Position numbers and translations under genes: made by a program
Source of the DNA: a virus
Lineage: Duplodnaviria; Caudoviricetes
IMG/VR virus record: IMGVR_UViG_3300044724_002038
Span: 1-57,287 of that record
DNA: 57,287 bases
Direction: 5' to 3' (one strand)
The notes under the pieces: generated by a model
The model's input: only the letters and a program-made list of their open reading frames with translations
What the model was told of the DNA's origin: nothing
The model's database searches: none
Part shown: piece by piece, positions 21,468 through 57,287 of the stretch
Numbering within the stretch: the stretch's first letter is position 1
Layout of the letters: each line of letters begins with the position of its first letter

Positions 21468-21824
21468 TTACTCTCCTGAGACTTTATGTACTTTGAATGT
21501 GATAACTCCTGTACCACTTAATGTCAAATCAAGGTTAGCGGCTAATTCAAATGAATTTTGCTCTAAACGTATGCCACTTGCTTGATAGTCATGATAACCT
21601 GAACCTGAGAATACTGCGACAGTGTTGGCACCACGCTTGACTGTCCATGAGCCTGCACTAGATACTGACCACATTACTTCTGAGATTGCCATTGATTCTA
21701 CAGACTCACCGATTGTATTAGCACCAGCAAGACCATTAGAAGTATTAAGTTTTAGACCAGATGTAGAATTAGCACGGAATACAACGTATCCCGCTGGTTT
21801 CTTATGATTTACTGTAATAGGCAT
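21468..21824 (-). CDS. Small beta-rich virion protein
   Basis: In head operon just upstream of gp21; translationally coupled. Confidence 0.7.
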   Translation of the reverse strand: MPITVNHKKPAGYVVFRANSTSGLKLNTSNGLAGANTIGESVESMAISEVMWSVSSAGSWTVKRGANTVAVFSGSGYHDYQASGIRLEQNSFELAANLDLTLSGTGVITFKVHKVSGE

Positions 21825-22393
21825 TATCCAGTCCTCTTAGCGAACGTAAGCATTGATTTATAGGACTTCTGATCTTTCATCATCTCAGATTCCATACGCT
21901 TACGATTTTCTGGATTCAACTCTTTGAGAACATCATTGAACATTTTTGCTTCATCTGGACTGACTTTGACTGACTTACCGTCTTTCAACTTCATCATGCC
22001 AGCCTTGACTGACTCATCAAGTTCGACTTCTTCTTTGACAGTCTCTACTTTCATATCACCCTGTGACTTATCACCTTTGCGAGTAGGGGTCTTACCAATC
22101 TTATCACGGAACTGAGCAAATTTAGCATCACCTGTCGTGCCTTGCTTAACAGGCTTGTCTTCACCATCAGCACCTTCAGATTCTGCATCTTTATGATCTA
22201 CGTGCTTTTTGTCAGACTTAAACTGCGCATTATCAGCAACTGGATGAGCAATTTCTACTGCTTTATGAAGATCGACAAATTCGATTTCACCATCAGCTGT
22301 GGGCGCTAATTCTGTCTCTTCACCTTCTGGCTCAATGACGTATTCAGAAGCAGCCGCCTCATTAATTGATCTAATTTTTTTAAAACTGTTCAT
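21824..22393 (-). CDS. Prohead core/internal protein (gp68-position)
   Basis: MNSFKKIRSINEA, EEVELDE protease-type sites; LKDGKSVKV...LNPENRKRM. Confidence 0.7.
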   Translation of the reverse strand: MNSFKKIRSINEAAASEYVIEPEGEETELAPTADGEIEFVDLHKAVEIAHPVADNAQFKSDKKHVDHKDAESEGADGEDKPVKQGTTGDAKFAQFRDKIGKTPTRKGDKSQGDMKVETVKEEVELDESVKAGMMKLKDGKSVKVSPDEAKMFNDVLKELNPENRKRMESEMMKDQKSYKSMLTFAKRTG

Positions 22394-22583
22394 CGTTTGT
22401 CTCTTCTGGTGTTACCTCTGTCTCTTGAGGACTGAATAAAGTTGCCGCAATGGATTGCTTTTCTACATCAATTCTATCATTAGCTTTTTGCAACAAGATA
22501 TCTGCTACTGTTTCACGAAATTTTGTTGCGTCATTAGTACCAATATAATCAACAGCGTCTGATAATTTTGCTTCAATATCCAT
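22380..22583 (-). CDS. Prohead core protein (gp67-like)
   Basis: Small acidic helical protein with own TATAAATA (22605-22612). Confidence 0.65.
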   Translation of the reverse strand: MDIEAKLSDAVDYIGTNDATKFRETVADILLQKANDRIDVEKQSIAATLFSPQETEVTPEETNDEQF

Positions 22584-22619
22584 TTTATAGTTCTCCTCCG
22601 TGTTTATTTATAATAATTA

Positions 22620-23231
22620 TTATATGAAAAATGGTAGTTTGTAATCTACACCACCCACGTTTATCACCAAATGACCGTCTGGATTCGCTATCAACGAATC
22701 TCCCGTTGTCAATGAACCTAATGATTGTGAATTTAAAACTGCTGTGTTACCTGAATAAGCAGTAATATCACCCGACGAAACTTCAGCAGAAGTATTAGCT
22801 ACTGCAGACATATATGGAAGTTTATAGTCTACCCCATTAATATTCATTACAATGTGACCAATAGGATTAGCTACAACTGCATCATCTGGAGAGAGACTCC
22901 CCAAACTTTCTACAATACCGGCGCTGGCTGTATTGCCGCTGGCTACGGTAGTTGTATATGTACTGCTACTGGCAAGAGTGCTAAATGAAAGGTTACCGTT
23001 ACCATCAGTCTTTAAGACTTGGCCAGTAGAACCATCAGCATGTGGGAAAGAGTAAGCGCTATTTACAGACAGTGTAGAAGGATTAGATCCAATTTCTAGA
23101 ATTGCTGTAGCGTTAGATGTGTATAGTCTTTTATCAGGTATATTTAAGGCTAATTCACCAGTCGACAAATTTCCGGTAGTAGGTTCATTACCGGACACAC
23201 TTGTCCGTTTAATCTTAATAACAGATGCCAT
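22620..23231 (-). CDS. Fibre-like virion protein, IKLKRS family
   Basis: MASVIKIKRT...GELALN; DGSTGQVLKTDGNGNLSF knot; duplicated C-terminal NP.GH.V.N..GVDYKLP. Confidence 0.8.
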   Translation of the reverse strand: MASVIKIKRTSVSGNEPTTGNLSTGELALNIPDKRLYTSNATAILEIGSNPSTLSVNSAYSFPHADGSTGQVLKTDGNGNLSFSTLASSSTYTTTVASGNTASAGIVESLGSLSPDDAVVANPIGHIVMNINGVDYKLPYMSAVANTSAEVSSGDITAYSGNTAVLNSQSLGSLTTGDSLIANPDGHLVINVGGVDYKLPFFI

Positions 23232-23240
23232 AATAATAAC

Positions 23241-23311
23241 TCCTATGTAGGAATAGAGAAGAGTGGGGGATCAAATCCCCCACCTCCCATATTAAAGTCT
23301 ATATAGACTTT
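23241..23311 (-). promoter_or_regulatory. Three-hairpin structured leader
   Basis: AAAGTCTATATAGACTTT; GTGGGGGAT-TTG-ATCCCCCAC; TCCTACATAGGA overlapping the SD. Confidence 0.6.
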
Positions 23312-23332
23312 GCTCAATATTTATTTATAATA

Positions 23333-23692
23333 TTAGAAAGAGCCACCGTCTCGTGTACCAAATGCAGATGCAATATAAGCATTGGTATTTGCAAGTGCAG
23401 AATTAAAAGCTGCAGGCTCAAGTTTTTGATTCCATACAGTTCCGCCAACGAAAGCCGTAGCGTTAGCATAGTAATTAACAGATGTAACAACAGTTTGAGT
23501 TAATTGTCTTTCCCCAAACTCACCTGTCGTTTTTCCTAATCTATTAGAATTAGGATCACGGAAAGCAAAAGTAGTAGATGAGTTGGCATTGAATAACTGT
23601 TCATCTTTGATGTTAATTGCCAACTCACCTTCTACTAGTGAAGGAGTAGCACCTGCTGTATTGGATCTTTTTAGTTTAAGAATAGATGCCAT
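23333..23692 (-). CDS. Short fibre-like virion protein, IKLKRS/DGGxF family
   Basis: MASILKLKRS...GELAIN; LANTNAYIA; ends DGGSF. Confidence 0.8.
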   Translation of the reverse strand: MASILKLKRSNTAGATPSLVEGELAINIKDEQLFNANSSTTFAFRDPNSNRLGKTTGEFGERQLTQTVVTSVNYYANATAFVGGTVWNQKLEPAAFNSALANTNAYIASAFGTRDGGSF

Positions 23693-23706
23693 TTTTATCT
23701 CCTATA

Positions 23707-24069
23707 TTAGTATGAACCACCGTCAGCTAACGCAGCTTCAGCAGCAATGTAAGCATTGGTGTTAGCAAGAGCAGCATTATGTACACTAATATCTACTTTT
23801 TGAGATAAAAGGCTATTGTCCACAACAGAGTTAGCAAAAGCACTAATACTTGTAATAACTGTATCACTTGGAGTTAAATCTTCAACAGCTTTTTCAGTAA
23901 CAGATACAGCTTTCACACCATCAGTGTGAACTTGGAAAACAGCAGTACTATTTGCTGAATATAATTTTTGATCTTGTGTGTTAAGAGCCAATTCACCTTC
24001 TGCAATATCAGAAAGCGAAGGAATAGCACCAGCAGTACTCGATCTTTTTAGTTTAATAATAGATGCCAT
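23707..24069 (-). CDS. Short fibre-like virion protein, IKLKRS/DGGxF family
   Basis: MASIIKLKRS...GELALN; LANTNAYIA; ends DGGSY. Confidence 0.8.
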   Translation of the reverse strand: MASIIKLKRSSTAGAIPSLSDIAEGELALNTQDQKLYSANSTAVFQVHTDGVKAVSVTEKAVEDLTPSDTVITSISAFANSVVDNSLLSQKVDISVHNAALANTNAYIAAEAALADGGSY

Positions 24070-24099
24070 ATTTTAACTCCTTTCTTTTCTTTAGTAGGT

Positions 24100-24125
24100 G
24101 TTGGGAGAGCCGAAGCCCTCCCAAC
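24100..24125 (-). other. UUCG hairpin without U-tract (stabiliser/processing/partial terminator)
   Basis: GTTGGGAGGGC-TTCG-GCTCTCCCAAC followed by ACCTAC. Confidence 0.6.
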
Positions 24126-24141
24126 GTTTTATCTACCTAGA

Positions 24142-25458
24142 TTAGAAAGAACCGCCATCTACGATTGCATCTAACTGAGCAAGTGCATAACCTGTAGCAC
24201 TTACATCAACTGTTGTTGTTGGTGCTGCTTCAGAGTCTTTGAACAACTTGAAGACACCGTCTGTGGCATCACGGAACAAACCAGCATAGTTGGTTGTACC
24301 GCTATTGTCATAGAGAGCAAAGAAACCAGTGTCAACAACGTCTGAGATAGTGTTGTTAGCAGCAAGTTTCATTAATGGATCATTGACTTCGATGTTAGTT
24401 GTTGAGATGTATGTTACATCACCTTCAACTGTCAAGTTACCACTAATTGTTGTGTTACCAGCAACTTGTAAGTTTGTGCTGATAGATGCACGACCTGTGT
24501 GATTAAAGTGACCAGTTGATGCTGGATCAGCAACAGTTAGATAGCTACCTGAGAGTGATGTGCTTAGACCATCAATAGCTGAGTTGGTGTTTGCAAGAGC
24601 AGCTTTATGGTAATCGTCAACATTACTGATTACACCACGGATTGCAGTGTTAGTATTAGTCAAGTTTGTATTAACAAGAGTAATACGAGCAGCTTCGTCG
24701 CTGATATCACTTGCATTAGTAGCAATATCAGTAGCATTTGTTGAGATCAATGTGCGCAATGCTGTATTAGTTCCAGTCAAATTAGTGTTGACAAGACCAA
24801 TACGAGTAGCTTCGCTGGTGATATCACTTGCATTTGTTGAAATCAATGTGCGCAATGCAGTATTAGTATCAGTCAAGTTTGAGTTGACAAGGGTAATACG
24901 AGCAGCTTCGTCGCTGACCAAACCGCGGATTGCAGTGTTGGTTTGCTGAACGTCGTCAAGAGCTTGTGTACCAGAGCCAGTTGCAGAAGTGATCAAGGAA
25001 CGTAAAGCAGTATTAGTTTCAGTCAAATTAGTGTTGACAAGATTAATACGAGCTGTTTGTGTTGAGATATCACTAGCATTAGTAGAAATATCAGTAGCAT
25101 TTGTTGAGATCAATGCACGCAATGCTGTATTAGTTTCGGTCAAATTAGTATTGACAAGACCGATACGAGCTGTTTGCGTTGTGATATCACTAGCATTTGT
25201 TGAGATCAAGGTACGTAAAGCTGTATTAGTTCCAGTCAAATTAGTGTTGACAAGACCAATACGAGTAGCTTGTGCAGCAATAGATGCGTTTGTATTACCT
25301 AGGGCTGCTTCACCGATACGGACAACTGCACCACCAGATTGCTTAGAATAGATTACGCGGTCTGCAAGGTTAATCGCAACCTCACCTACCTCTAGGTCAC
25401 CAGCCGCTGGAACTGCACCGCCAGTACTGGACCGTTTAAGTTTAATTACTGAAGACAT
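24142..25458 (-). CDS. Coiled-coil fibre protein, IKLKRS/DGGxF family
   Basis: MSSVIKLKRS...GEVAIN; tandem heptad repeats; ends DGGSF. Confidence 0.85.
   Translation of the reverse strand: MSSVIKLKRSSTGGAVPAAGDLEVGEVAINLADRVIYSKQSGGAVVRIGEAALGNTNASIAAQATRIGLVNTNLTGTNTALRTLISTNASDITTQTARIGLVNTNLTETNTALRALISTNATDISTNASDISTQTARINLVNTNLTETNTALRSLITSATGSGTQALDDVQQTNTAIRGLVSDEAARITLVNSNLTDTNTALRTLISTNASDITSEATRIGLVNTNLTGTNTALRTLISTNATDIATNASDISDEAARITLVNTNLTNTNTAIRGVISNVDDYHKAALANTNSAIDGLSTSLSGSYLTVADPASTGHFNHTGRASISTNLQVAGNTTISGNLTVEGDVTYISTTNIEVNDPLMKLAANNTISDVVDTGFFALYDNSGTTNYAGLFRDATDGVFKLFKDSEAAPTTTVDVSATGYALAQLDAIVDGGSF
24640..25290 (-). repeat. Imperfect coding tandem repeat, six copies
   Basis: RI(G/N/T)LVN(T/S)NLTxTNTA(L/I)R six times, with one or two STNA(S/T)DI heptads between most copies. 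Confidence 0.9.
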
Positions 25459-25489
25459 CTTTAAAATTCTCCTATAGGATATTTAAAAT

Positions 25490-25894: not shown

Positions 25895-25898
25895 TTTA

Positions 25899-26690
25899 TC
25901 AAAACTCTCCGCCGTCTAATGAACCTACTGTGACCTCCGCAAAAACAGGTACATTATTTGCTATCTGTAGTACATGAGTATTAGCACCTGTAGCAAATCC
26001 CATTGTTGTTGTATTAGCACCATACAGTACAGCGTTTTCAGTAAGAGATGAAACTCCTGTACCACCTTGCTCTACACCAAGAACGGTTGATAGAATAAGA
26101 TTGGTGATTGAAGTGTTACCAGTAAATGTTTGGTTAAAGTTATTAGCAGCCCCGCCGCCAACACCAAAAGAGCCAGTATACCTAGCCCCACTAATATATA
26201 CTGATTTACCAGTGAAGTCAATACCATTTGGTAAATTATCACCAATAAAATGTAGGACACCACTCTGATAATCAAAGAACCATTCGTCATTGTTGCCAGA
26301 GCCAACACCAAAAACTTGATCACCACCACTTGCACCACTTGCATCACTACTGGTATGTATATAAACTTTCACACCATATGTTGCACCGATCTCTGTAGGA
26401 ATCCAGTCTGTTGAACCAGTTTTCCATGTTCTGTTCGCTGTTGCTGTACCATCAGCAGTACACTCAACTGGAGCAGATGTTGGATATACTGTGACGACAC
26501 CAGACGATGATCCTGGCATGACTGAAGGAATAGAACCAGAGTTTTTCCAAACACGGTCACCACGAAGCAGCAATGGGCTTGCGATTGATTCGTTTGGTGC
26601 TTTCTTGTTAGCATTCGTATCTGTCTTTGCTAGACCATATCCAATCTTTTTGAATAGGTAGTCTAACTTTTGTGCGTCGGAGATGGCCAT
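25899..26690 (-). CDS. Virion structural protein
   Basis: MAISDAQKLDYLFKK, WFFDYQSGVLHF, GVEQGGTG fibre motif; ends DGGEF. Confidence 0.8.
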   Translation of the reverse strand: MAISDAQKLDYLFKKIGYGLAKTDTNANKKAPNESIASPLLLRGDRVWKNSGSIPSVMPGSSSGVVTVYPTSAPVECTADGTATANRTWKTGSTDWIPTEIGATYGVKVYIHTSSDASGASGGDQVFGVGSGNNDEWFFDYQSGVLHFIGDNLPNGIDFTGKSVYISGARYTGSFGVGGGAANNFNQTFTGNTSITNLILSTVLGVEQGGTGVSSLTENAVLYGANTTTMGFATGANTHVLQIANNVPVFAEVTVGSLDGGEF

Positions 26691-29600: not shown

Positions 29601-29951
29601 AACGAAAGAAACTGACTTGACGAAGGTATCATTTCGAACGTTTTCGATGACTTCGTTTAGAATATCAATGGCATCAGTAGCTTTAGTTTCTGAGGTAAAA
29701 CTTTGATATGCCCCGTCTGTGGTTAAACTCCCATCAGTTGGAGTCCCTAGAGGAAGTTCCATACCAGTATTAGCACCGCCACCAGCAGCACCTAATTCGT
29801 CATAGCGAGCAAGACGAACACCACCATTCGATGATCCGTCATGTACACGAATCGTCGTATGAGTAGTATCCATTGTGACTTCACCAAGGGCACCAGCAAA
29901 CGTCGAATGCTGATTCGCCGTGCCCCTCCGTAATTTCATTTGTGTTGCCAT
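26691..29951 (-). CDS. Large virion protein with Mtd-N-like start and PKD-like repeats
   Basis: MKLRRGT...GEVTMDT...VHDG; WGDG/FGDG...H(T/I/D)(Y/F) four times. Confidence 0.8.
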   Translation of the reverse strand: MATQMKLRRGTANQHSTFAGALGEVTMDTTHTTIRVHDGSSNGGVRLARYDELGAAGGGANTGMELPLGTPTDGSLTTDGAYQSFTSETKATDAIDILNEVIENVRNDTFVKSVSFVADQTSGGAGLTVQLTITAVGNANQYVINWGDGTGNTTTSSTTPSHTYSTNTDSPFTVQVTASNTSGSGEGSSASSTRTDYIVISTANPVVGFAAYAAASGGSSITQWDDGATVYFENTTTNIGSATIQFTWDWGDGSSDDVVTNNSDAGGSAGSRISHIFAANTESEMSRVVKLTLDSHNTADPSVIPANTTSTFKIYDTHTPSVTLSSNTGINEESSSGHAVTFTNTTENTIGSHAAFGIQYLYTFGDGNTQTVNVGSGADGDTGGTIAHTYTLSGSDQAAGTPQDYTGTLQVTSDHASSPFTSTSFTVHVEPDVRANLSGTAVTTSDASGDNTLSIYDFTDLTGANRALVRMTNTSQNGDLYGYAWGDGDVNAAISEDGSSPGTIGATIDHDYAGESTGNYAVVLTANGTPDLTYQTDTETVTFALKAVPSAPANLSTKSITLSTSSVGSYPRLASGFSDNSSTNPLSAGADLNTTTARRYTSGTFSTSTATNAYNGASGTVSASVNGSDDGVKAFSTTSGETGTFTSLVVSSQVDYHSVDGSYPSNFYQVFSANISKALSGLSTGVSDFRLRHTATGDTNYVSILKDNLTATASFAAAGTLAEGTGGSKRYISGIPYYNTGSPTLTLSGATVNDLVGQAYTNQSNIVEIDTDTNEEGTSSSAFSSQDYSYSDIDGASSMLSSGTPIVNTGVGSAYAIGALTIPLTSSSVRTIDTAKIRVKNVNGTSSYTSIPGKIQVHTAGQSGIIEQAIPVADSLGSTHDDDGVRVFNFSGDTTDTPSFTGSTNFYTNSLYSESSDPGVSGTKEATIRLGVLKHDVTNYSSGYLPVGPDRSGDTGTQYFTFAFRRVAVANFDLSITSTSGISGCWIAAPGSGTDTSSGLNGWLDTSATYAGAGVPGSDTGNGGNGSDGCAFTPGDRISTGTSLSGSFTLTLGSENMSNSTGNVVLVRIALASGESVTALSVGVAS

Positions 29952-45958: not shown

Positions 45959-45962
45959 GTAA

Positions 45963-48157: not shown

Positions 48158-48207
48158 TTAATTTTTCCTCTTCTTTATAGAAATATGTCTGGTATTTATT
48201 ACTATGA

Positions 48208-48675: not shown

Positions 48676-48687
48676 TTTTGTTTCTCC

Positions 48688-49188
48688 TTAACCGAAAACG
48701 ATTGCCATAGCAATGGCTTTACCCGTTGTGATACCAGCACTTGGTGCTGTGGTTAGCGTGCTTGCATCGCTGAATTGAATGCCAGTGCTGTGGACGACCA
48801 ACTGACCTGAAAGTGTACCACCAGCGAGAGGAAGTGCAGCAGAAGCAGTTGTTGACACACCAGCAATAGAAGAGTTAGTGTTTGCAAGATCTGCGGCTTG
48901 CTTTGCTTCTTGTGTGTCAATGATACCACGAATTGCTGTATTAGTGGCAGTCAAATTCGTATTTAGATTAGCAATTGCCAAGTTAGTATTTGCTAGGTCA
49001 CCAGTACCAGCAGCAGCAGCAACAGAAGCGATGTAGGCATTAGTGTTTGCCAAGTCTGCTTTTGAAGATGAGTCTGAGGCAAGTGCTGATAAAGTTTTGA
49101 GTGAGTTAATATCACCCATCATTTGTAGAACGGTATTTGAACTTGTCAATGCCGCTAATTGAGTTGAGACTGCTGAAGGTGTTGCCAT
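48688..49188 (-). CDS. Short fibre/adaptor protein
   Basis: LANTN repeats, LPLAGGTLSG, C-terminal TTGKAIAMAIVFG. Confidence 0.78.
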   Translation of the reverse strand: MATPSAVSTQLAALTSSNTVLQMMGDINSLKTLSALASDSSSKADLANTNAYIASVAAAAGTGDLANTNLAIANLNTNLTATNTAIRGIIDTQEAKQAADLANTNSSIAGVSTTASAALPLAGGTLSGQLVVHSTGIQFSDASTLTTAPSAGITTGKAIAMAIVFG

Positions 49189-49206
49189 GATAGTTACCTT
49201 TCTTTT

Positions 49207-49428: not shown

Positions 49429-49438
49429 TTTCTTATCC

Positions 49439-52400
49439 TTAAATCTGAAGCGCAATGGCTCTTAAATCTTTCACTCTAGGAACCACATGGGAACCAGTAG
49501 AAGTACGAAGCACAATTTTCAAACTGAAGTACTTATATGTATCAAATTGTGCGCCAGATGAATTAAAGTATCTGACCACATTGTTGTTTCCACTAAAGTT
49601 AAACGCACCCAAAGAGGTAGCATTCGCTGAAGGGAAACCGTACTCCAACTCGACAAAGTTATCCTTGTTGACAACGCTGGATACAGTGTTCGCAGCACTC
49701 TCTTGGTCTAACTTAGTATAATGTTTGTCACGGAAGTCGTCAGGATCTTCAGCGTTCTGAATACGAGCATAAACGTCGATTTCTGTACCGACTGGTTTGT
49801 ATGCTGATAGAACTACTTTGATATCTTCTGCTTCTTGACCATCCGCTAAAACAATTTTCTTTGTGATATATCTTGATTGGGCGTTACCGAAGTTCCCAAA
49901 CTCGCCAGTATTATCATTATTTATAATATTGTGAACTGGGATAACTGACTTGGTTCTGCCCACATCAACGACTGGTGATAGACGATCTGAGCCAGAAGTC
50001 ATTGTGCCACTTAATCGAAGTGTCTTAGCACTGCCAGTGTTATTGACTTCATTTGTTCTGCTTGCGATAATTCTTTCACCACCCACAAAGTCATTATTCT
50101 CAAATGCTTCAATGGCAGTCTGTTGTTGTGAGATAACATAGTTGTTTGCTGTGGTATTTGCTGACCATGTAATATCTGTATCAACATACTTAGCAAAGGA
50201 TAGTTTAGGTACGAGTACATCGTATTTGTAATCTTTCAGACTGTAGACCTGTGCGAAAGCATTACTGACCTGACCACGATAGAAACCATCATCAATAGTC
50301 GTATTCGATGTAAAGTTACCAGATGAATTGTTGGCAACAATCTCATTACCAGATGGATTGTAATACTGAATAAATCCAGTAGCAGTGTTTGGTGTAAAGG
50401 TATTGACTACACCAGTAAATGTACCAGCACCATTAGCAAAGGTGATAGTGGAACCATCTGCGATAGAACCCTTCATGTCAACCTTGATAGTTGGTGTATC
50501 CGTCGTTGTTACCAACTTCCGAACCTTACCAGTATTAGAACCGATAGTGACCGTATCGTTGACTGCAATCGTAGCAGCATTGGAAGTCATGAGAACGACT
50601 GCCTCACCTCTGATCTTCTCACCGATATTGAAGCGAGTACCAGAGAACTGCGTAGCATTTAGATATTCGTCATTGTCATTGGTGTAAACAACACTACCAG
50701 TTAAGGTATTATCGAAGTTTGCACGCCAGATAGTAAACTGAATATCTTGGTTCTGTCTTGGTGTATATGTTCTATCGTTAGCAGACGTAAACAACATACC
50801 GACTGCTGGTTGCTGGTCGATAAGAGCATTGACTGTTACATCAGTACCGCCGAGTTCGGCAATCCACAAACGATAGTCTGGGTTTGAACCATCTGGTTTT
50901 ACGACGAATGCATATTCTGTGTCACCCCGTAGATATACAGGCTGGTCAAAGTAGAATGGTGTAGGTGCGTTTGCAGTATCAGAGATATTCACATCTTCTG
51001 GTGCGACACGCTTGTAACCGAATGGCACACGGATAGCAGTGATTTGACCGTTGATAACTTCACGGAGTTCAATAGCAATACCAGACGTTGAACTTTTCTC
51101 TTGGAAGTATAGATCGATACAGGAGATGAAGAAACCATCAGCACCTTGACCGAATAGGCTGTCAGCAAAGTCTAGATTTTCAAACTCATAGTCACCAACA
51201 CGGAATGTCTGTGCGACCGGATCTTTATGTGCCTGAAGACCGCTGAATCTTGAAGTGGTTGTCCGTCGCTCGCTGACAGTATCGTGTGACACTCTTGCTT
51301 CACGAGTGTTGAATGTGATGCCACGCTGTGAACTTGCTAGACCAACGGAGGTGTAGTTAGTGACAGCAGAAGTTGTCTCAGTACCAGTCTGTGTTGCTGT
51401 ATTAGCAATGTCAACTAGTTTGAATGGACGCTCACCTTGACGGAACTTTAATGAATCGTTGTTAGGAATAACGAAGACACCGAATACATCACCGTTTGCA
51501 TTTGTCTCTAGTGAAGCACCAAGACCTGCTGTGTTAGCAAACTCTTTGGTAGTAGGTGCGACGAAATCATTGACTAGAATATCGTCAAAGTATGGGAACA
51601 CACGAGTATTTGGTTTCATACCTGTGCCACGGAATTGAACTAGACGTGATCGCATGAATGGTACGATATCAGTGCGAGTTAAGAATGGACCAGACTTTTG
51701 AGTGCGATTGAATACATCGACGTTTAATCGAGTACCAGTGCGGACTTGCTCTTGTGTGGTAGTGATTGTGACATCATCGATAGCGCCATGAGTGCCAGGG
51801 CGACCTTCGAAGTTTTCAAGAGAACCAGTACCACCTCTTACGAAAGCAACACCATTTACTTCTCTTGTAGAAGAAGGCGGACCATCATTATTCCACTCAT
51901 TCCAGTTAGTACCCCATGCATCTTTTAGATTTTGCCAGTTAGAAGCAAGGTCAAGATCCCACTGTACGTCTGGTTGAGTTGTTGTGTCAACCCAATGATC
52001 TGCTTCTGGGAACAGGTCTAGATTACCAACCCAGTTGAATGTTAGTTCACCGACAGGGTTGATGGTCTTGGAAGCCCATGGTTGGTCGATATGAATTTGA
52101 TGAGTATAAGGTAGAGTTACTAAATCACCAGGGGTAGCATTCTGAACCGTTGATGTGGTTGCTGTATCAGCAGAACCATCTTTCTTCAGAGTAGCAGATG
52201 TGGTGAATGTACCACTTGCATTGTGTAGATACAATCTGACAATACTGCTGTTAGCAACGACAGTCCGAACTGTACCCTGTGCAGTTGCTGAACCAAGCGA
52301 AGAGCCAAGATAGACAACATCACCGTTTTGATATGAATCGGTATTTGCCGTTACATCAAGTCTGACCTGCTTGCCTTCTTTAGTGACATTGCTTGAAAGT

Positions 52401-55400
52401 GCACTATTGAAAGAGATGTCAATATTCTGCGAATCAAACTTAGGTCTTAGTTCACCCTTAACTTTATCAATGGATGAGAAGTATGATGGGTCTGTCAAGT
52501 CAGCATTATTATGACCGAAGAAGGCATCTACAAAGATACCGTTCTTGAATCGATCAAGACCATTCTCATCAGGAATTGCTAAGTCTCTTGCTGCCTTCTC
52601 TAGAACATTCAAAGCAGTATAGTATTCAAGGCGGTCAATCCGAGTTGAGATATCTGAAATGTCTTCCATGGTATAACGACGATGGAAGAATGGTTTGACT
52701 TTGACTGCCAGATCAACACGAGTACCTTCAGTCTGTGGGTCAATGAAGTTGTAAGCATTCTCCAGTGATAGTGATGGGAATGGAGGAATGTTTAGCAATG
52801 ACAGAGACATTGACTCTGCTGGTTCTAATGGTGGGAATGGTTTATCAGAAGCAATACCTTTAATTACTTTCTTCTTACCATCTTTACCAATAACCACTCG
52901 GTCAACACGAGGTAGATAGTGAATAAGGTCTGAACTGAATGTCTCATCAGGAACAGGTACATATGAACCGTCTGAGTCTACATCAACCGTAGTTGACAAT
53001 GCAGGGTTGACTGCTGAATCAGCAACTGTAGTGACGTTTGTATTCGCAGCAGATGTTACTCTTGGACGGAAGTCTAGTGAGTCACGAAGGTCATATACGT
53101 TTCGTGAGGTCTTTGAAGAGAACCGTGGAATCTGTGGTGTAGCAATCGCTGTGTTATTTGCTGTTGACTCGTTTGGATCAATAGAGTATGAATCAACAGA
53201 GAAGAACCCAATACCACCAGAACGATCATGCTCGAAATAGTCAATCTCTACAACTAAACGATCATCAGTTGAAAGTGCAAGACTGCTACCTTCTTTTAGT
53301 GTAAGTAGTGAGTGCTTATAGAGGTTATCGTCTGAGTTCCGGATGATTCTAAACTCAGATGTTACATCTCTGTTATTTACTGAATATGTTGTACCCACAT
53401 AAACCTTACGCAAATTGAATACATCAGCAACACCAAGACCATATGGACCAACAATACCAGCGCTGTGAGATGATAGATCCAATCGTACAAACCGACTCTT
53501 ACGAACTGCTTTAGCAGTGCCAACTGCTGTCTCTCTTTTGTTATTGAAGAAAACTGTAATGTTGGTTGAGTTGGCAAATGTCTCTTTCAAATCGATTGAA
53601 GCAACTGTACCAGAAGAAACTGTTACCGTTCTTTCTGTACCAGTTGTACCGTTCTCTGTCAAGTCAAAAACATAACCTGTTGGGAAGATCTTGTGGACTT
53701 CAGCAGTACCTGCACCGCCATCAGCAGCCAAACAGTGGAATGTTGAATCGTCTACAGTAGCAATAGCAGGATTGGTTGTCATAGAAGTATCACTGGCAAT
53801 GTCAACGATACGAGTTACAATGGAACCTTGACCGCCAGTATTTGACACTGAGATGTAATCACCAACCTTAAAGTTTGTCAGGAATGTAGTATTATTACCA
53901 ACCAACGTATTTGCTTGTTGAGTATTAGCAACAGCACCGAATACCTGCTTGACAAGACCAGGGACACTAGCAGTCTGTGCAGTAGCACCAGCAACAGCGA
54001 TGAAGTCACGCTTTTGTGTATCGTTTAGCGCACCAACACCATATGGAAACTCTTCTGTACCACCAGCATGAACGCCAGAGATAGCAAGCGAACCAACACC
54101 AGCAGTGTTGAACGAGATTGTTGCCTTATCACGGAACTGATAGAACGCATTGATTGTACCAGTGTTTGTCGTGAGTTGTTTGGTTGCCTGAACACCAAGC
54201 GAATAAACATTTCTGTTGAACTCTGGGTCTTTGATGACTGCCTTGGTGACAGTAGTAGCAGTTGACCCACCACCTGTTGTACCGATAACGACTGTTTCTA
54301 AAACAGCATCAGCAAAACTATCTGGACCTGAAGCGTTATTTACATAGAATGAACGGACATCGCCAAATGACTTACCAGAAGCAGTCATGTTGATATCAAA
54401 GAGATACAAACGGAACTTACCGTCTTTCTGACCCATGATACCAGACTCATACTGCATACCACGAACCTTAGCCGTACCAATCTCAGCACCAGGAGCAGCA
54501 CCTGCACCAAGCGCAACACTACCACTTGTTACAGCAGTAGCAACGGTGTCTCGTAATGAAATGGTCTGAACTGTGGTTGGATCCCATGGACCAACGACTT
54601 CGTTTACAATAGCATAGTTACCAAAGTTTGTGGTGACATTTACACCGACTTCGTGCTTGGTATCAGTTGCCTTGTCTGTCTCAATGAATTCTGTTGTGAG
54701 AGTTTCGTTACGATAACCCATAATGTAAGCAACACCTGGCTCAATACCAATAGCAAGTTTGTCCTTATCACCACCTTCACCAGCAGTATAACGACCGAAG
54801 TTGCTACCTGTATTCAAATGCTCTTTTACATGAGTATTGATTTGTTTTAATTGATAGTTACCAGACTCTTCGTAGGTTCTCTTAGCAAGTTCTCTACCAA
54901 TGCTGTTGAATACCGTATCATCTCTTACGATACGAACCTTACCGCTTTCAACCTCAAAGATTGGAAAGAATGATTCAGTATTAGCAGATGACAAGTTTGA
55001 AGAATCGAATAGTGCTTTCTTGGTAAGTGTTGGTGTTAGAACCAAACGATCAGCACCAGGAGCAGAAGCGTTGTATGAACCAGCAGCATTGTCAAGCAGT
55101 GTTGTATCTGATGAACTGGTTGCGATACTTTCTAATACCTTGAAACCAACCTTATATGAAGGTGTGGTTGAATATTTTTCTAGGACAAGCGTTTGAGAAG
55201 CAACGTTGATGAAGTGACCCTTGGAAAAGATTGTACCACCACCGACATTGAAGACTGACCCAAAGCCAAATGCACCAGCAGCAATAGTGTTGGCACGCTG
55301 ACCAGCACCACCATCAGCAGGAAGAAATACAAGCTCTTCATTCAGACCAAAAGTTTTATTTGTCTTTGATGTACCACTATCAATATACTTGACTAAGAAT

Positions 55401-55786
55401 GTGTTGTAGTCTGGGGCAGTAGTCTCAGCACCAGCAGCAGTAGAGATAATCTTAGCACGAACACCCGTGGTTGCACCTTGAATAGTTCCACCATCGAAGT
55501 CTGTAACGGTAATAGTATTACCACCAGCATCGTTATCTCTCAGCTTGATGAATGCGACATTAGCATCATACTGAAAAGCACAACCGTCGACGATTGTACC
55601 CTCTTCATAGATGTTATTTCCAAAACGCTCGACTTGGTTTTGAAGAATAGTTTGGAGTTGATTTAATTCCCGTGTTTGAACCGCAAGTGAAGGCTTGAAA
55701 AGAACTTTGTGGTAATTCTTTAACTTTGCACTCGTTTCGAAATCATCAAAGTAGGGAGATAAATTGAAATTAGTCTCTATTGCCAT
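49439..55786 (-). CDS. Large baseplate/structural protein (DUF4815/VrlC-like)
   Basis: NLSPYFDDF, VQTRELNQLQTILQNQ, APGADR, RRYTMEDI...RLEYYT, RFKNGIFVD, PRVKDLRAIAL. Confidence 0.88.
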   Translation of the reverse strand: MAIETNFNLSPYFDDFETSAKLKNYHKVLFKPSLAVQTRELNQLQTILQNQVERFGNNIYEEGTIVDGCAFQYDANVAFIKLRDNDAGGNTITVTDFDGGTIQGATTGVRAKIISTAAGAETTAPDYNTFLVKYIDSGTSKTNKTFGLNEELVFLPADGGAGQRANTIAAGAFGFGSVFNVGGGTIFSKGHFINVASQTLVLEKYSTTPSYKVGFKVLESIATSSSDTTLLDNAAGSYNASAPGADRLVLTPTLTKKALFDSSNLSSANTESFFPIFEVESGKVRIVRDDTVFNSIGRELAKRTYEESGNYQLKQINTHVKEHLNTGSNFGRYTAGEGGDKDKLAIGIEPGVAYIMGYRNETLTTEFIETDKATDTKHEVGVNVTTNFGNYAIVNEVVGPWDPTTVQTISLRDTVATAVTSGSVALGAGAAPGAEIGTAKVRGMQYESGIMGQKDGKFRLYLFDINMTASGKSFGDVRSFYVNNASGPDSFADAVLETVVIGTTGGGSTATTVTKAVIKDPEFNRNVYSLGVQATKQLTTNTGTINAFYQFRDKATISFNTAGVGSLAISGVHAGGTEEFPYGVGALNDTQKRDFIAVAGATAQTASVPGLVKQVFGAVANTQQANTLVGNNTTFLTNFKVGDYISVSNTGGQGSIVTRIVDIASDTSMTTNPAIATVDDSTFHCLAADGGAGTAEVHKIFPTGYVFDLTENGTTGTERTVTVSSGTVASIDLKETFANSTNITVFFNNKRETAVGTAKAVRKSRFVRLDLSSHSAGIVGPYGLGVADVFNLRKVYVGTTYSVNNRDVTSEFRIIRNSDDNLYKHSLLTLKEGSSLALSTDDRLVVEIDYFEHDRSGGIGFFSVDSYSIDPNESTANNTAIATPQIPRFSSKTSRNVYDLRDSLDFRPRVTSAANTNVTTVADSAVNPALSTTVDVDSDGSYVPVPDETFSSDLIHYLPRVDRVVIGKDGKKKVIKGIASDKPFPPLEPAESMSLSLLNIPPFPSLSLENAYNFIDPQTEGTRVDLAVKVKPFFHRRYTMEDISDISTRIDRLEYYTALNVLEKAARDLAIPDENGLDRFKNGIFVDAFFGHNNADLTDPSYFSSIDKVKGELRPKFDSQNIDISFNSALSSNVTKEGKQVRLDVTANTDSYQNGDVVYLGSSLGSATAQGTVRTVVANSSIVRLYLHNASGTFTTSATLKKDGSADTATTSTVQNATPGDLVTLPYTHQIHIDQPWASKTINPVGELTFNWVGNLDLFPEADHWVDTTTQPDVQWDLDLASNWQNLKDAWGTNWNEWNNDGPPSSTREVNGVAFVRGGTGSLENFEGRPGTHGAIDDVTITTTQEQVRTGTRLNVDVFNRTQKSGPFLTRTDIVPFMRSRLVQFRGTGMKPNTRVFPYFDDILVNDFVAPTTKEFANTAGLGASLETNANGDVFGVFVIPNNDSLKFRQGERPFKLVDIANTATQTGTETTSAVTNYTSVGLASSQRGITFNTREARVSHDTVSERRTTTSRFSGLQAHKDPVAQTFRVGDYEFENLDFADSLFGQGADGFFISCIDLYFQEKSSTSGIAIELREVINGQITAIRVPFGYKRVAPEDVNISDTANAPTPFYFDQPVYLRGDTEYAFVVKPDGSNPDYRLWIAELGGTDVTVNALIDQQPAVGMLFTSANDRTYTPRQNQDIQFTIWRANFDNTLTGSVVYTNDNDEYLNATQFSGTRFNIGEKIRGEAVVLMTSNAATIAVNDTVTIGSNTGKVRKLVTTTDTPTIKVDMKGSIADGSTITFANGAGTFTGVVNTFTPNTATGFIQYYNPSGNEIVANNSSGNFTSNTTIDDGFYRGQVSNAFAQVYSLKDYKYDVLVPKLSFAKYVDTDITWSANTTANNYVISQQQTAIEAFENNDFVGGERIIASRTNEVNNTGSAKTLRLSGTMTSGSDRLSPVVDVGRTKSVIPVHNIINNDNTGEFGNFGNAQSRYITKKIVLADGQEAEDIKVVLSAYKPVGTEIDVYARIQNAEDPDDFRDKHYTKLDQESAANTVSSVVNKDNFVELEYGFPSANATSLGAFNFSGNNNVVRYFNSSGAQFDTYKYFSLKIVLRTSTGSHVVPRVKDLRAIALQI

Positions 55787-55797
55787 TCTTTTAAACC

Positions 55798-57287
55798 TTA
55801 AAATCTAACGATAAGTTTGATATCTTCTGTCTGATCTGCTGCCCGACTTACTGGCAATCTATTCTCAACATAGAGAACGTCGCCAACAAAGTCTTGTAGA
55901 TCTCTATTATTTATAGACGATACAACAGCAGTTTGTGTGGAGGTGTTACCTGTAATTGTTTCACTAGCAGTAAAAGTACCATCTAATCCCGTGACACTGA
56001 TAACACCTGCCGTACCAGAAGCATTCGTATTTGCAAATGAAACGAAACGAGCAGCAGCACCACTTGAAGAACCGGCAATCATCTCATCGGCAGAGAATGT
56101 ACCAGACTTACCTGTTACTGTGAGTTTGGTTGTCATGTCGTAAACTGTTGAGTTTGCCTGTGCACCTGAGAACAGAACAGGATCACTAACCAAGCCAACA
56201 ATGCGGAAGTCATTATTGGTAATAAAGGTGCCTGACTCAGTGCCAGTCATACGGACGTTTAGCAGAACATCAGTTGCACCGAGTTCACTTACTGGGTTAG
56301 AACCATGACCACCATATGGTGCGATACTACCAGCAGCAGTTCCACCAGTACCATGTGAACTGTTAGCAGAGATTGCAACGGAATATTTACTGTAGTTAGA
56401 GCCAGTGTTAATCATAACAATTTCGTTGATAGTGTTGCCCACAGTAGCAGAAGCAAGAGCAGGAAGTGCGACGTTAGCATATGCCAGTGCACTTGAACCA
56501 TCACCCGTAATTGTGACTTTAGGACCAACGATATATGATGATCCTGTTGTTGGGATGGGTGAGAAGGCAGCATTCACAGTTGCCTTATTGATATTGCCCT
56601 GGTAGTCAACGATTTCTCTTAACTGACCTGAACCTGTACCACTACTGATATAGATTGTAGAACCAACATACGAATCATCAGTTGTACTTGCACTGGTAAG
56701 TTTTACGATAGTTGAACTGTCAACATTTGAGAAAGTACCAGCAGCATAGAGATAACCAGAACCAGCGGCTGTTACATCGACGTAATCAATCGCACCATTA
56801 GATGCTGCTGCCTGAACGTCAAACTGTAGACTGCCATCATCTGCTGTGAGTTCTTTGACAGGAATGAAGTTTGTCGTTGTGAACTTCAATACATCAGCAG
56901 GAGAGATGTTATACATAAACTTCCAGCGATACCCATCAGAAGTCGTTACGATTGAAGTGCCCGTTGATGTAGGTTTAACTGTTGACAATGCCCCATTATT
57001 ATTGTCAATACATTTGTAAACATTAAAATCGTCAGTGACCACAAAGAATGCACTTGTGTAGAGAGATGTATTTGAATCTGAATATGGAGTATATACCTGA
57101 CCAGAAGTCCAGTTGTTCCTTGCGACGACAAATGTAGCATCACTTGACGTAACACGCTTTGCTGCGATCATATTCCGCCAGATATTATAGTCAGAACCCA
57201 AAATGGTATCTGTTGGCGTGGGTGGAGAAGCATCGTCCGTCCAACCGTGTGCTTTTGCTAAAAACATATAATAGCGAGTATTAATGT
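55798..57287 (-). CDS. gp8: Baseplate wedge gp8-like, 5' truncated by window
   Basis: VYKCIDNN, DGYRWKFMY, GGHGSNPVSELG, LYVENR...QTEDIKL; frame open to window end. Confidence 0.9.
   Translation of the reverse strand, partial: INTRYYMFLAKAHGWTDDASPPTPTDTILGSDYNIWRNMIAAKRVTSSDATFVVARNNWTSGQVYTPYSDSNTSLYTSAFFVVTDDFNVYKCIDNNNGALSTVKPTSTGTSIVTTSDGYRWKFMYNISPADVLKFTTTNFIPVKELTADDGSLQFDVQAAASNGAIDYVDVTAAGSGYLYAAGTFSNVDSSTIVKLTSASTTDDSYVGSTIYISSGTGSGQLREIVDYQGNINKATVNAAFSPIPTTGSSYIVGPKVTITGDGSSALAYANVALPALASATVGNTINEIVMINTGSNYSKYSVAISANSSHGTGGTAAGSIAPYGGHGSNPVSELGATDVLLNVRMTGTESGTFITNNDFRIVGLVSDPVLFSGAQANSTVYDMTTKLTVTGKSGTFSADEMIAGSSSGAAARFVSFANTNASGTAGVISVTGLDGTFTASETITGNTSTQTAVVSSINNRDLQDFVGDVLYVENRLPVSRAADQTEDIKLIVRF

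Follow-up and report, generated by a model that had tools for sequence, protein, structure and literature searches.

An Ala-Asn-Thr motif enriched in the particle proteins of one lineage of T4-like phages is a candidate acceptor site for phage-encoded glycosylation

The particle proteins encoded by a viral genome fragment from the IMG/VR collection (record IMGVR_UViG_3300044724_002038; Duplodnaviria, Caudoviricetes) are highly enriched in the tripeptide Ala-Asn-Thr (ANT), and this excess is specific to one lineage of T4-like phages and to the proteins of the particle. We refer to the whole stretch of DNA that was analyzed (57,287 nucleotides, about 32% of a genome) as the window. Its 29 open reading frames (ORFs) starting at or beyond position 21468 (11,525 amino acids) contain 43 ANT tripeptides, compared to 6.78 expected from the composition of each individual protein, while the remaining 30 ORFs (6,741 amino acids), including those for gp21, gp22 and gp23, contain none (1.21 expected). 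The difference between structural and non-structural proteins suspected in the initial annotation of this DNA hence survives correction for composition. The explanation that we tentatively favor, and which we regard as quite possible although short of probable, is that a small residue (preferably Ala) followed by Asn and Thr constitutes a short recognition motif that lineage-specific selection would keep dense on the exposed variable loops and the fibres of particle proteins, most likely because a post-translational modification encoded by the phage uses it as acceptor site. Glycosylation is the leading candidate: a predicted GT-A-fold enzyme, together with a GT-B enzyme encoded elsewhere in the genome, would glycosylate the Asn (or Thr) residue in the cytoplasm, and the finished virion would thus bear a sugar coat. 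We infer the occurrence of the modification, the residue modified and the enzyme responsible; glycosylation of virion proteins by phage enzymes is plausible.

ANT ranks first among all tripeptides of the 29 ORFs that start at or beyond 21468 (Poisson 1e-20). Other arrangements of the same residues are less frequent in these ORFs (ATN 5, NAT 10, TAN 12, NTA 22, TNA 23), and 1000 shuffles each of whole proteins and of 10-residue blocks yielded 6.8±2.5 and 9.0±2.9 (maximum 18) ANT tripeptides, respectively; the permutation counts and the block shuffles rule out an artefact of overall or local composition. Since the corresponding DNA word, GCNAAYAC, is nearly confined to the coding frame (43 occurrences; the two remaining frames hold 0 and 1, and the antisense strand holds 2) and the codons at ANT sites match general usage, the signal resides at the protein level, and a DNA-level motif is ruled out. 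We consider an artefact most improbable, whether it be due to internal repeats, paralogous fibre modules, local composition or a signal in the DNA. Fourteen sites do stem from a single repeat family of paralogous fibre ORFs, and A, N and T are locally plentiful in the fibres, with an enrichment of AN and NT that raises the first-order expectation up to 19.5. When the fibre repeat is masked, however, 29 sites that have no common context are left, against 7.3±2.7 (maximum 17) upon local shuffling, and the excess recurs in conserved single-copy proteins, where it involves many independent alignment columns, as well as in four cultured phages that were sequenced separately. The comparisons of frame, column, shuffle and giant protein thus largely refute such an artefact.

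The distribution of the motif over the proteins of the window is compiled in Table 1. The initial annotation had reported at least 10 ANT tripeptides in the 2115-aa virion protein, with one to two predicted; we found 10, and expect 1.34. The other occurrences that it had listed were each located as well: FANTN in the gp8-like protein, NANTA in gp14, YANTA and AANTF in gp15, NANTA and GANTS in gp18, two GANT in the 118-aa ORF, those of the chaperone-like ORF, and the variant AGNTA in gp23. Its claim that ANT is absent from the replication genes and from gp20, gp21 and gp22 holds for the window, as does the exception that it had named, the terminase subunit gp17. Six non-virion late ORFs, among them those for gp17 and the chaperone-like protein, together contain four ANT (0.29 expected), and these two proteins remain counterexamples within the window.

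Table 1. ANT-carrying proteins and other features of the window.
Feature	Position	Strand	ANT	Remarks
281-aa GT-A-fold glycosyltransferase-like gene (phrog_1574)	4874..5719	-		Candidate modifying enzyme; predicted structure
118-aa ORF, gp67/68 position	21468..21824	-	2 (GANTI, GANTV)	Without family match
Four fibre-like ORFs	22620-23231, 23333-23692, 23707-24069, 24142-25458	-	1 each	Common tail-fibre N-terminal module
263-aa ORF (phrog_9417)	25899..26690	-	2	
1086-aa fibre-like protein	26691..29951	-	3	Mtd_N domain
531-aa fibre	29999..31594	-	8	21 collagen G-x-y triplets, followed by repeats of 18 residues
Tail tube gp19	33325..33885	-	0	Enclosed by sheath
Tail sheath gp18	33918..35918	-	2 (N61, N178)	
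Terminase large subunit gp17	36176..37804	-	2	Non-virion
gp15 and gp14, neck and tail-terminator proteins	38653..40310	-	2 (gp15), 1 (gp14)	
2OG-Fe(II) oxygenase	44515-45219			
121-aa ORF	in 47792..49188	-	1	
Tail-fibre assembly chaperone-like ORF	48208-48675	-	2	
166-aa ORF	48688-49188	-	3	All in DL-ANT-N repeat form
2115-aa virion protein (phrog_358, DUF4815)	49439..55786	-	10	Unrelated contexts
gp8-like baseplate wedge protein	55798..57267	-	1	

Collections of orthologues gave a similar picture. ANT exceeds expectation in gp15 (22 vs. 2.8) and gp14 (7 vs. 0.9), and to a lesser degree in gp17 (9 vs. 4.9 in 58 sequences); it is missing from gp21 (0.8 expected) and gp16 (1.3 expected), and also from 78 orthologues of the tail tube protein gp19, in which 6.8 would be expected. 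With respect to exposure, ANT is carried by loops and variable regions and is absent from the enclosed tube, yet it is present in gp17 and in the 118-aa ORF, whose position is the one occupied in T4 by internal prohead proteins.

The residue requirements of the motif were assessed in a pooled set of 773 ORFs. In the frame A-x-T, Asn alone is enriched (3.9-fold; Pro follows with 1.4-fold); in A-N-x, Thr is enriched 3.9-fold compared to 1.3-fold for Ser; and in x-N-T, Ala (3.9-fold) is followed by Ser (2.3-fold) and Gly (1.9-fold). None of the flanking positions exceeds an enrichment of about twofold among 356 collapsed contexts. The strict requirement is limited to Asn and Thr, and Ser is no substitute for Thr. 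The motif had initially been written as (A/G/S)-N-(T/S); its Thr form stands ([AGS]NT 73 vs. 21.2), but its Ser form does not ([AGS]NS 19 vs. 20.1). With the chlorovirus-type N-T-x-T site, cited as a precedent initially, the motif shares the Asn directly followed by Thr but not the fourth position, which is Ser or Thr in 70 of the 356 contexts (about 1.1-1.2-fold). Likewise, the canonical N-x-S/T sequon does not describe the sites: Ser or Thr stands two positions after Asn in just 74 of the 356 contexts (about 1.2-fold), and the conserved Thr is the residue that directly follows Asn.

The excess extends to relatives of the window phage. In 80 related environmental loci (672 ORFs), we counted 359 ANT tripeptides against 99 expected (ATN 74, NAT 125). 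Cultured phages show it in the structural arm of the genome and not in the rest: DLP6 (29 vs. 6.9; rest 3 vs. 5.7), Cr30 (21 vs. 4.75; rest 6 vs. 5.5) and phiM12 (17 vs. 5.7; rest 3 vs. 7.5). When only homologues of the virion module are considered, the values are 21 vs. 2.75, 13 vs. 2.73 and 10 vs. 2.6 for these three phages, and those of the Ochrobactrum phage OC are weakly enriched (6 vs. 2.48). The same module is devoid of an excess in the four cyanophage/pelagiphage-type relatives Mosig (2 vs. 4.07), Melnitz-3 (3 vs. 2.99), P-HM1 (6 vs. 4.51) and S-PM2 (3 vs. 2.14), and T4 likewise has none (6 vs. 5.1). A general property of T4-type folds or of fibrous proteins is ruled out by T4 and these four sister genomes. 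In our tree, the cyanophage/pelagiphage clade received a support of 100%, and the placement of the window itself 39%.

Within this lineage, the density of ANT is kept, and its positions turn over. Orthologues of the giant 2115-aa protein carry 35 ANT (5.15 expected) in five genomes and 3 (3.98 expected) in four sister genomes; the positions are nearly non-overlapping, with just 3 of the 35 columns common to two genomes. Across 11 core-protein alignments, ANT occupies 70 distinct columns, the most of any tripeptide. The gp18 alignment (60 sequences) contains ANT in 32 columns, 30 of them within the first 376 residues, the variable N-terminal part. In the predicted structure, 26 of the 32 map to loops (neither helix nor strand), where coil makes up 55% of residues 1-450 (binomial 0.002). 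In the virion-protein alignments that have ANT sites (gp23, gp20, gp18, gp15, gp14 and gp13), the columns lie in variable, gap-rich stretches, although for gp13, with two columns, the gap-rich measure holds and local entropy does not; those of gp17 do not lie in such stretches. Three of the 32 gp18 columns are located directly ahead of a helix and two directly ahead of a strand in the model; the placement immediately N-terminal to a helix would fit a capping role.

A structural role is also suggested by the fibres. Fourteen of the 43 window sites lie in the repeat L-ANT-N-A-Y/R-I with an 18-residue period, whose rows are seen in the 531-aa fibre ([18 protein letters not shown]) and whose word recurs in four other ORFs; three of the four fibre-like ORFs of 22620..25458 carry it in the form L-ANT-N-[AS]-[YA]-I. 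Hydrophobic residues recur in phase at -2, +5 and +8 from the Asn. Judged from this sequence pattern, the 14 repeat sites may be part of the architecture of a helical bundle, in addition to or instead of any other role. A comparable arrangement is found in trimeric coiled-coil fibres and adhesins, where Asn-Thr likewise stands at a fixed phase of a helical fibre repeat. The stalks of trimeric autotransporters contain Asn-Thr polar core layers with the pattern [IV]xxNT; the Leu-to-Asn spacing of the window repeat is unlike this pattern. Because about one third of the window sites reside in a possibly purely structural repeat, this finding weighs against glycosylation.

ANT could accordingly be an unmodified structural micro-motif throughout, serving as a loop, turn or helix cap and as a polar layer of the fibre repeat, and common by descent and weak selection; the substrates of the two glycosyltransferases would then be other glycans, DNA bases or a component of the host envelope, and their distribution would be due to shared ancestry of the genes. 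We regard this as a real possibility, though not the expected outcome. The phased repeat and the gp18 sites that abut helices and strands are in line with it, but the repeat type accounts for only 20 of the 356 contexts of the lineage, sister-phage orthologues of the same architecture lack the excess, and the positions are not conserved. Turn and capping motifs usually tolerate exchanges of Asp for Asn and of Ser for Thr. At the sites studied here, neither Asp can stand for Asn nor Ser for Thr.

The candidate modifying enzyme was examined by structure prediction, which assigns to its product a GT-A fold with a DxD motif, in keeping with the designation as GT-A in the initial annotation. The AlphaFold model (pLDDT 79, pTM 0.79) gave 214 Foldseek matches in the PDB at E<=1e-3, and the best 50 of these 214 are all GT-A enzymes (probability 1.00), led by STIV A197 (5.7e-9), COLGALT1, ppGalNAc-Ts, LH3 and mimivirus R699. 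No DNA glucosyltransferase is found among these best 50 of 214 matches, which speaks against the structural alternative. D82-x-D84 is invariant in 28 homologues. In Pfam, only sub-threshold hits were obtained (Anp1, 14.5 bits, cut-off 28.8; Glyco_transf_21, 14.3 bits, cut-off 21.7), and NCBIfam and PDB sequence-profile searches returned nothing above threshold. Several of the GT-A matches are protein-glycosylating enzymes; polysaccharide and teichoic-acid GT-A enzymes also occur among the matches. The viral glycosyltransferase STIV A197 as well as COLGALT1, LH3 and the polypeptide GalNAc-transferases share the GT-A fold and the DxD motif with the window protein, but identities are 8-15% and TM-scores 0.35-0.5, and the acceptor is not fixed by the fold. 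The COLGALT1 and LH3 matches raised the idea of a collagen-type hydroxylysine glycosylation as a conserved role of the enzyme; this is unlikely, since runs of at least eight G-x-y triplets are present in the window and DLP6 only and are absent from Cr30, phiM12 and OC.

In metagenomes, the GT-A-like gene has at least 8000 scored homologues. The GT-B gene, which is known here from relatives of the window phage, is present in all six enriched genomes that are complete or nearly so (PF00534 above cut-off). It follows the glutaredoxin gene among early genes. In the window, the GT-A-like gene itself belongs to the replication/nucleotide module, with the gp45 clamp gene on one side and a dCTP-deaminase-like gene on the other. 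FolE-QueD-QueE deazaguanine genes are also present in the window, and in phages from Manatee Spring its homologue stands beside RusA, methyltransferase or DNA-binding genes. Such surroundings favor the structural alternative: the position of the GT-A gene among replication and nucleotide genes makes a DNA substrate possible instead, and the early and DNA-metabolism neighborhoods of both genes make DNA or envelope substrates as plausible as protein.

A survey of the 288 DLP6 ORFs of at least 100 amino acids identified three real genes that Cr30, phiM12 and OC all possess and that none of the four genomes lacking the excess contains. The GT-A-like and GT-B genes are two of these, and they are the only ones of the three also found in both near-complete environmental relatives; the third (376 amino acids, phrog_11903) is missing from both of these and was dropped. 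Judged from the gene content of these genomes, the co-distribution of glycosyltransferases and motif is essentially one evolutionary event, as a single loss in the ancestor of the fully supported cyanophage/pelagiphage clade can explain it, and this too is what an unmodified structural motif would predict. Phages that have a GT-A homologue alone also mostly lack the excess: in three small phages from Manatee Spring, which have a 39-46% homologue and no GT-B gene, the ANT counts are 7 (5.4 expected), 5 (5.1 expected) and 10 (3.8 expected), a modest excess in one of the three, and no ANT excess is seen in ACG-2014f and AG-345-L05, whose homologues are at about 30%. In the unrelated podophage HTVC023P, the GT-A and GT-B genes overlap as a pair, and the genome contains 16 ANT (6.1 expected), three of them in paralogues. 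In 80 loci of its relatives, the 10-kb regions flanking this gene pair contain 121 ANT (87.6 expected), or 31 collapsed contexts compared to 22-33 for the permutations. These flanks, which stop short of the 20-40 kb region holding the sites of HTVC023P itself, have no real excess and supply no independent replicate; HTVC023P itself is weakly positive.

The same sequence evidence, a short, sharp and particle-specific motif, would be expected if ANT were recognized for a purpose other than glycosylation, either another modification of Asn or Thr, e.g., hydroxylation by the 2OG-Fe(II) oxygenase of the window, or the docking of decoration or assembly factors. The oxygenase gene and a conserved partner lie amid the structural genes of the window and beside tail genes in HTVC023P. 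We nevertheless judge such a use quite unlikely: homologues of both genes occur in Mosig, and of the oxygenase in Melnitz-3 and S-PM2, all of which are devoid of the excess; no candidate for a decoration protein was found; and the sole genes that track the excess are the glycosyltransferases.

Returning to glycosylation, the protein-level and particle-confined excess, the variable loops and the GT-A lineage support the phage-encoded virion glycosylation proposed initially, while the share of repeat sites, the Ser form and the fourth position do not. In a wider version, which we consider somewhat unlikely, a T4-like group comprising the aquatic lineage together with DLP6, Cr30 and phiM12 would sugar-coat nearly all outward particle proteins through cytoplasmic GT-A and GT-B enzymes at small-Asn-Thr sites; this sequon would be convergent with that of chloroviruses, and sister lineages whose transferases have diverged would rely on different motifs, such as Gly-hydrophobic-small-Thr. 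The latter is found 274 times (75 expected) in ACG-2014f, in which ANT is not enriched (10 vs. 17.2) and a 30% GT-A-like homologue lies among tail-fibre and sugar genes. As a virion motif of the window it is ruled out (16 vs. 19.5).

A three-residue word whose high density is maintained even as its positions change is a pattern that demands an explanation. Should ANT serve as an acceptor site, T4-like phages of a large group that is abundant in the environment would possess a sugar-coated particle. This would bear on the stability and adsorption of particles, on grazing and on the immunology of phage therapy, and the acceptor motif could be read straight from the sequence. Even if no modification takes place, the motif cleanly exemplifies selection that acts on density rather than on position, in one lineage only. 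Since Cr30 (Caulobacter) and phiM12 (Sinorhizobium) are in culture, with laboratory hosts that are harmless, the idea is immediately testable. Our literature search found no report of virion modification in this phage group, and glycosylation is not mentioned in the accessible parts of the papers on DLP6, OC and phiM9.

Glycosylation of particle proteins in tailed phages has, to our knowledge, been documented so far for actinobacteriophages only. Mycobacteriophage virions are reportedly glycosylated by phage-encoded glycosyltransferases. These are tailed phages, unrelated to the window phage, in which capsid and tail proteins are modified by glycosyltransferases that the phages themselves encode; the modification is O-linked and placed on C-terminal tails of capsid and tail tube subunits, and we know of no virion-wide short motif described for it. 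A closer parallel in sequence is provided by the chlorovirus PBCV-1. The initial annotation describes chlorovirus Asn-Thr sites as preceded by Ala or Gly, and we know of no enzyme or sequon logic for their N-glycosylation. As far as the consulted parts of two reports go, the N-glycosylation sites of the PBCV-1 protein Vp54 are 302-NTGT, 399-NTET, 406-NTAT, plus 280-NIPG (PMC9614988, PMC5408694). Asn is directly followed by Thr, not arranged as in the canonical N-x-S/T, and the same order is found in ANT. PBCV-1 is a eukaryotic giant virus, and Thr is common at the fourth position of its sites, unlike in the ANT contexts. Its glycans are proven and occupy four to six sites on one capsid protein, whereas the candidate sites described here are known from sequence and spread across most outer proteins. 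In PBCV-1, particle proteins are targeted by the virus's own cytoplasmic glycosyltransferases; the phages studied here combine motif-bearing particle proteins with candidate glycosyltransferase genes.

The initial annotation had described (A/G/S)-N-(T/S) as a recurrent motif of the virion proteins encoded from position 21468 onward and proposed it as a candidate glycosylation sequon. All the occurrences of the tripeptide Ala-Asn-Thr (ANT) that it listed are present in the ORFs of the window, and the enrichment is stronger and wider than was then apparent. The 29 ORFs from position 21468 onward contain 43 ANT sites versus 6.78 expected from each protein's own composition; the remaining 30 ORFs contain none (1.21 expected). 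ANT ranks first among the tripeptides of these 29 ORFs (Poisson probability 1e-20); permutations yielded 5 to 23 sites, and shuffling in 10-residue blocks yielded 9.0 ± 2.9, reaching at most 18 over 1000 shuffles. The signal sits in the protein, since the coding frame holds 43 copies of the nine-base word for ANT, compared with 0 and 1 in the shifted frames and two on the antisense strand, and since its codon usage is ordinary. The wider class held up for threonine ([AGS]NT, 73 versus 21.2 expected) but not for serine ([AGS]NS, 19 versus 20.1). In a pool of 773 ORFs from the window, 80 related loci and three cultured phages, Asn alone is enriched between Ala and Thr (3.9-fold, with Pro next at 1.4-fold); Thr leads after A-N (3.9-fold; Ala, 1.6-fold; Ser, 1.3-fold), and Ala before N-T (3.9-fold; Ser, 2.3-fold; Gly, 1.9-fold; Asn, 1.8-fold).

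The minus strand carries all genes of the window, which amounts to about one-third of a T4-like genome. Judged by the sheath protein, the named phages closest to it are Stenotrophomonas phage DLP6, pelagiphage Mosig, Ochrobactrum phage OC, Melnitz, Cr30, and phiM12, and the cyanophages are not among them. In a six-protein tree, support is weak (39%) for the window's place between the pelagiphage-cyanophage clade and the DLP6/Cr30/phiM12 group. Its Hsp20 small heat-shock gene is held in common with pelagiphage and cyanophage relatives, not with the DLP6/Cr30/phiM12 group; the peptide deformylase gene has matches only in Cr30, OC, Mosig, and Melnitz-3, and a GT-A-like glycosyltransferase gene is common only to the window and the DLP6/Cr30/phiM12/OC group. 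These distributions make the gene content a mosaic between both groups. The consecutive FolE, QueD-type, and QueE-like genes look like a 7-deazaguanine DNA-modification gene set; no QueC was seen within the window. The smaller of two tube-family genes adjoins gp23, distant from the sheath gene, and DLP6 likewise has a second "tail tube protein" after its head genes.

Positions of the features discussed, in the window and in related records
Feature	Record	Position	Strand	Content
Replication, recombination, and nucleotide genes	window	1-21517	-	DNA polymerase fragment, RegA, clamp loader, gp45, gp46/47, gp55, UvsW, UvsY, FolE-QueD-QueE
Head genes	window	inside 1-21517	-	gp23, gp22, gp21
Virion module	window	21468-57287	-	fibres, portal, tube, sheath, terminase, neck, baseplate-type proteins, 2115-aa protein
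Hsp20 and peptide deformylase genes	window	836-1396; 10763-11272	-	
GT-A-like gene	window	4874-5719	-	281 aa
Deazaguanine-type genes	window	8694-10932	-	FolE (GTP cyclohydrolase I), QueD-type 6-pyruvoyl-tetrahydropterin synthase, QueE-like radical SAM gene
Two tube-family genes (phrog_45)	window	17684-18190; 33325-33885	-	
Four consecutive fibre-like ORFs	window	22620-25458	-	common N-terminal module of ~45 residues
Fibre-like protein	window	26691-29951	-	1086 aa; N-terminal Mtd_N domain (major tropism determinant), E 5e-11
Collagen-bearing fibre	window	29999-31594	-	21 G-x-y triplets (about residues 46-108), 18-residue helical repeats
Oxygenase/"ferrochelatase" pair	window	44515-45898	-	2OG-Fe(II) oxygenase (PF13640) overlapping a 230-aa gene labeled "ferrochelatase" in PHROGs, amid structural genes
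Giant virion protein	window	49439-55786	-	2115 aa
gp77-gp78	HTVC023P (L183)	2959-4759		GT-B and GT-A-like genes, 14-base overlap
Oxygenase locus	HTVC023P (L293)	24039-25922		two oxygenases and "putative ferrochelatase" beside tail genes
GT-A-like locus	ACG-2014f (L170)	215134-221784		30% GT-A-like homologue among tail-collar-fibre, glycosyltransferase, and nucleotide-sugar epimerase genes

The ANT excess is confined to certain T4-like lineages. The 32 structural proteins of T4 contain 6 sites (5.1 expected). When homologues of the window's virion module were compared across eight whole genomes, excesses were found in DLP6 (21 versus 2.75), Cr30 (13 versus 2.73), phiM12 (10 versus 2.6), and OC (6 versus 2.48); the counts were 2 versus 4.07 in Mosig, 3 versus 2.99 in Melnitz-3, 6 versus 4.51 in P-HM1, and 3 versus 2.14 in S-PM2. 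ANT is the first-ranked tripeptide in DLP6, the second in Cr30 (behind SNT), and the third in phiM12, and the excess is limited to the structural arm of these genomes (DLP6, 29 versus 6.9, rest 3 versus 5.7; Cr30, 21 versus 4.75, rest 6 versus 5.5; phiM12, 17 versus 5.7, rest 3 versus 7.5). The orthologous giant protein is the cleanest comparison: it carries 35 sites (5.15 expected) in the window (10), DLP6 (12), Cr30 (5), phiM12 (6), and OC (2) taken together, and 3 (3.98 expected) in Mosig, P-HM1, S-PM2 (one each), and Melnitz-3 (none). Since only three of the 35 ANT columns are common to two genomes, ANT density is kept while positions turn over, which speaks against a motif that the fold dictates.

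Among 80 IMG/VR loci retrieved with the sheath protein, ANT occurs 359 times (99.0 expected), compared with 74 for ATN and 125 for NAT. The excess extends over orthologues of the sheath (124 versus 28.6), gp15 (22 versus 2.8), gp14 (7 versus 0.9), the portal (16 versus 3.5), gp23 (18 versus 5.3), gp13 (3 versus 0.78), and the terminase (9 versus 4.9). No site was found in orthologues of gp16 (1.3 expected) or gp21 (0.8 expected), nor in 78 orthologues of the sheath-enclosed tube (6.8 expected). Since such counts repeat inherited sites, we also counted alignment columns: across 11 core-protein alignments, ANT occupies 70 distinct columns, the highest value of all tripeptides (permutations, 29 to 54). 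In virion proteins these columns lie in the more variable, gap-rich stretches, which is not so in the terminase. The sheath alignment has 32 ANT columns, each in a minority of 60 sequences, and 30 of them fall into the variable N-terminal 376 residues. When mapped onto the AlphaFold model (pLDDT 71) of the sheath protein encoded in the window, 26 of the 32 columns are neither helix nor strand (binomial 0.002, with coil making up 55% of residues 1-450); seven are located in a low-confidence loop (89-108) and three immediately before a helix.

A structural role is conceivable for 14 of the window's 43 sites, which have the form ANT-N-x-x-hydrophobic and belong to an 18-residue repeat (e.g., [18 protein letters not shown]) of the collagen-bearing fibre, a word that recurs in ORFs 23333, 23707, 24142, and 48688. 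Hydrophobic residues at -2, +5, and +8 from the Asn resemble a helical bundle; read from this register, the Asn would face outward and the Thr would be closer to the core. The contexts of the remaining 29 sites have nothing in common, and their number is still far above expectation (7.3 ± 2.7). In the lineage as a whole, the repeat type makes up only 20 of 356 collapsed contexts, and enrichment at the flanking positions nowhere exceeds about twofold.

Several neighboring features concern the fibres themselves. Among nine genomes, collagen runs of comparable length were found only in the window's fibre and in a 1775-aa DLP6 protein. The N-terminal module of the four fibre-like ORFs has counterparts at the N-termini of PHROG families for long tail fibres and baseplates, also hits short segments of Mosig, Melnitz-3, and P-HM1, and looks like a common attachment adaptor whose distal parts are swapped. 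No reverse transcriptase was found within the window, which encodes an Mtd_N protein. The oxygenase/"ferrochelatase" pair, with homologues also in Mosig, may be a conserved module for the hydroxylation of virion proteins, e.g., of the collagen-like fibre.

Family matches of the GT-A-like product were all sub-threshold. Its structural model (pLDDT 79, pTM 0.79) matches GT-A glycosyltransferases, including STIV A197 (E 5.7e-9), COLGALT1, polypeptide GalNAc-transferases, LH3, mimivirus R699, and Mnn9, and the invariant D-x-D is kept. DLP6, Cr30, phiM12, and OC all have an orthologue (50-62% identity), as do four of the five environmental relatives examined; the one without a match is a 33%-complete fragment. 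None was found in Mosig, Melnitz-3, P-HM1, S-PM2, Syn33, or S-CRM01. The distribution is the same for a GT-B gene (PF00534, above cut-off), which occurs in two near-complete environmental relatives, DLP6, Cr30, phiM12, and OC, and was not found in Mosig, Melnitz-3, P-HM1, or S-PM2. When 288 DLP6 ORFs of at least 100 aa were profiled, three real genes were present in Cr30, phiM12, and OC and in none of the four no-excess genomes, namely the GT-A-like gene, the GT-B gene, and an uncharacterized 376-aa gene, which we discarded as a candidate since both near-complete environmental relatives lack it. The overlap of both genes in the unrelated pelagiphage podovirus HTVC023P, whose GT-B is 31% identical to that of DLP6 (E 4e-42), suggests that the two transferases work together.

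In T4-like phages, the ANT excess goes together with the presence of these glycosyltransferase genes, but this counts as one event, since a single loss in the pelagiphage-cyanophage clade, which is well supported, would account for it. HTVC023P itself has 16 ANT sites (6.1 expected; three in paralogues); its first 20 kb contain none (0.8 expected), and 15 (4.5 expected) lie between 20 and 50 kb, around capsid and tail genes. The regions 10 kb to each side of the gene pair in 80 of its relatives have no real excess. The ANT counts are 7 versus 5.4, 5 versus 5.1, and 10 versus 3.8 in three small phages from Manatee Spring that carry a GT-A homologue (39-46%) and no GT-B. A DNA-directed or other role of these transferases is a serious rival: the homologue in the Manatee Spring phages lies beside RusA, methyltransferase, or DNA-binding genes, the window's gene has gp45 on one side and a dCTP-deaminase-like gene on the other, with the deazaguanine genes some 3 kb away, and the GT-B gene of DLP6 and phiM12 follows glutaredoxin among early genes.

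Other lineages might use other acceptors. A Gly-hydrophobic-small-Thr/Ser motif, not enriched in the window (16 versus 19.5), is abundant in cyanophage ACG-2014f (Gly-[IVLF]-[GAST]-[TS], 274 versus 75, mostly at 180-220 kb, the stretch that also holds its GT-A-like homologue; ANT, 10 versus 17.2) and in AG-345-L05 (79 versus 42.6), which has a 28% GT-A-like homologue. Neither motif is enriched in Syn33, which lacks such a homologue. This pattern, no more than a correlation, fits lineage-specific acceptor motifs.

In the best-supported reading, exposed loops of the particle proteins carry ANT as a recognition motif specific to this lineage, which most likely serves as the acceptor for a phage-encoded modification. 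The excess seen in the initial annotation is confirmed; the glycosylation it proposed, here with the GT-A/GT-B pair as the enzymes, is the foremost candidate, if a tentative one, and a purely structural motif, with transferases that act on DNA or another substrate, comes close to it in likelihood. Virion glycosylation has been reported for mycobacteriophages; for the present phage group, we found no report of it in the main texts of the papers searched. In chloroviruses, capsid N-glycans are attached to Asn in NTGT, NTET, NTAT, and NIPG (PMC9614988). Although the fourth-position Thr of these sites is not enriched at the ANT sites, the Asn-Thr core is common to both.
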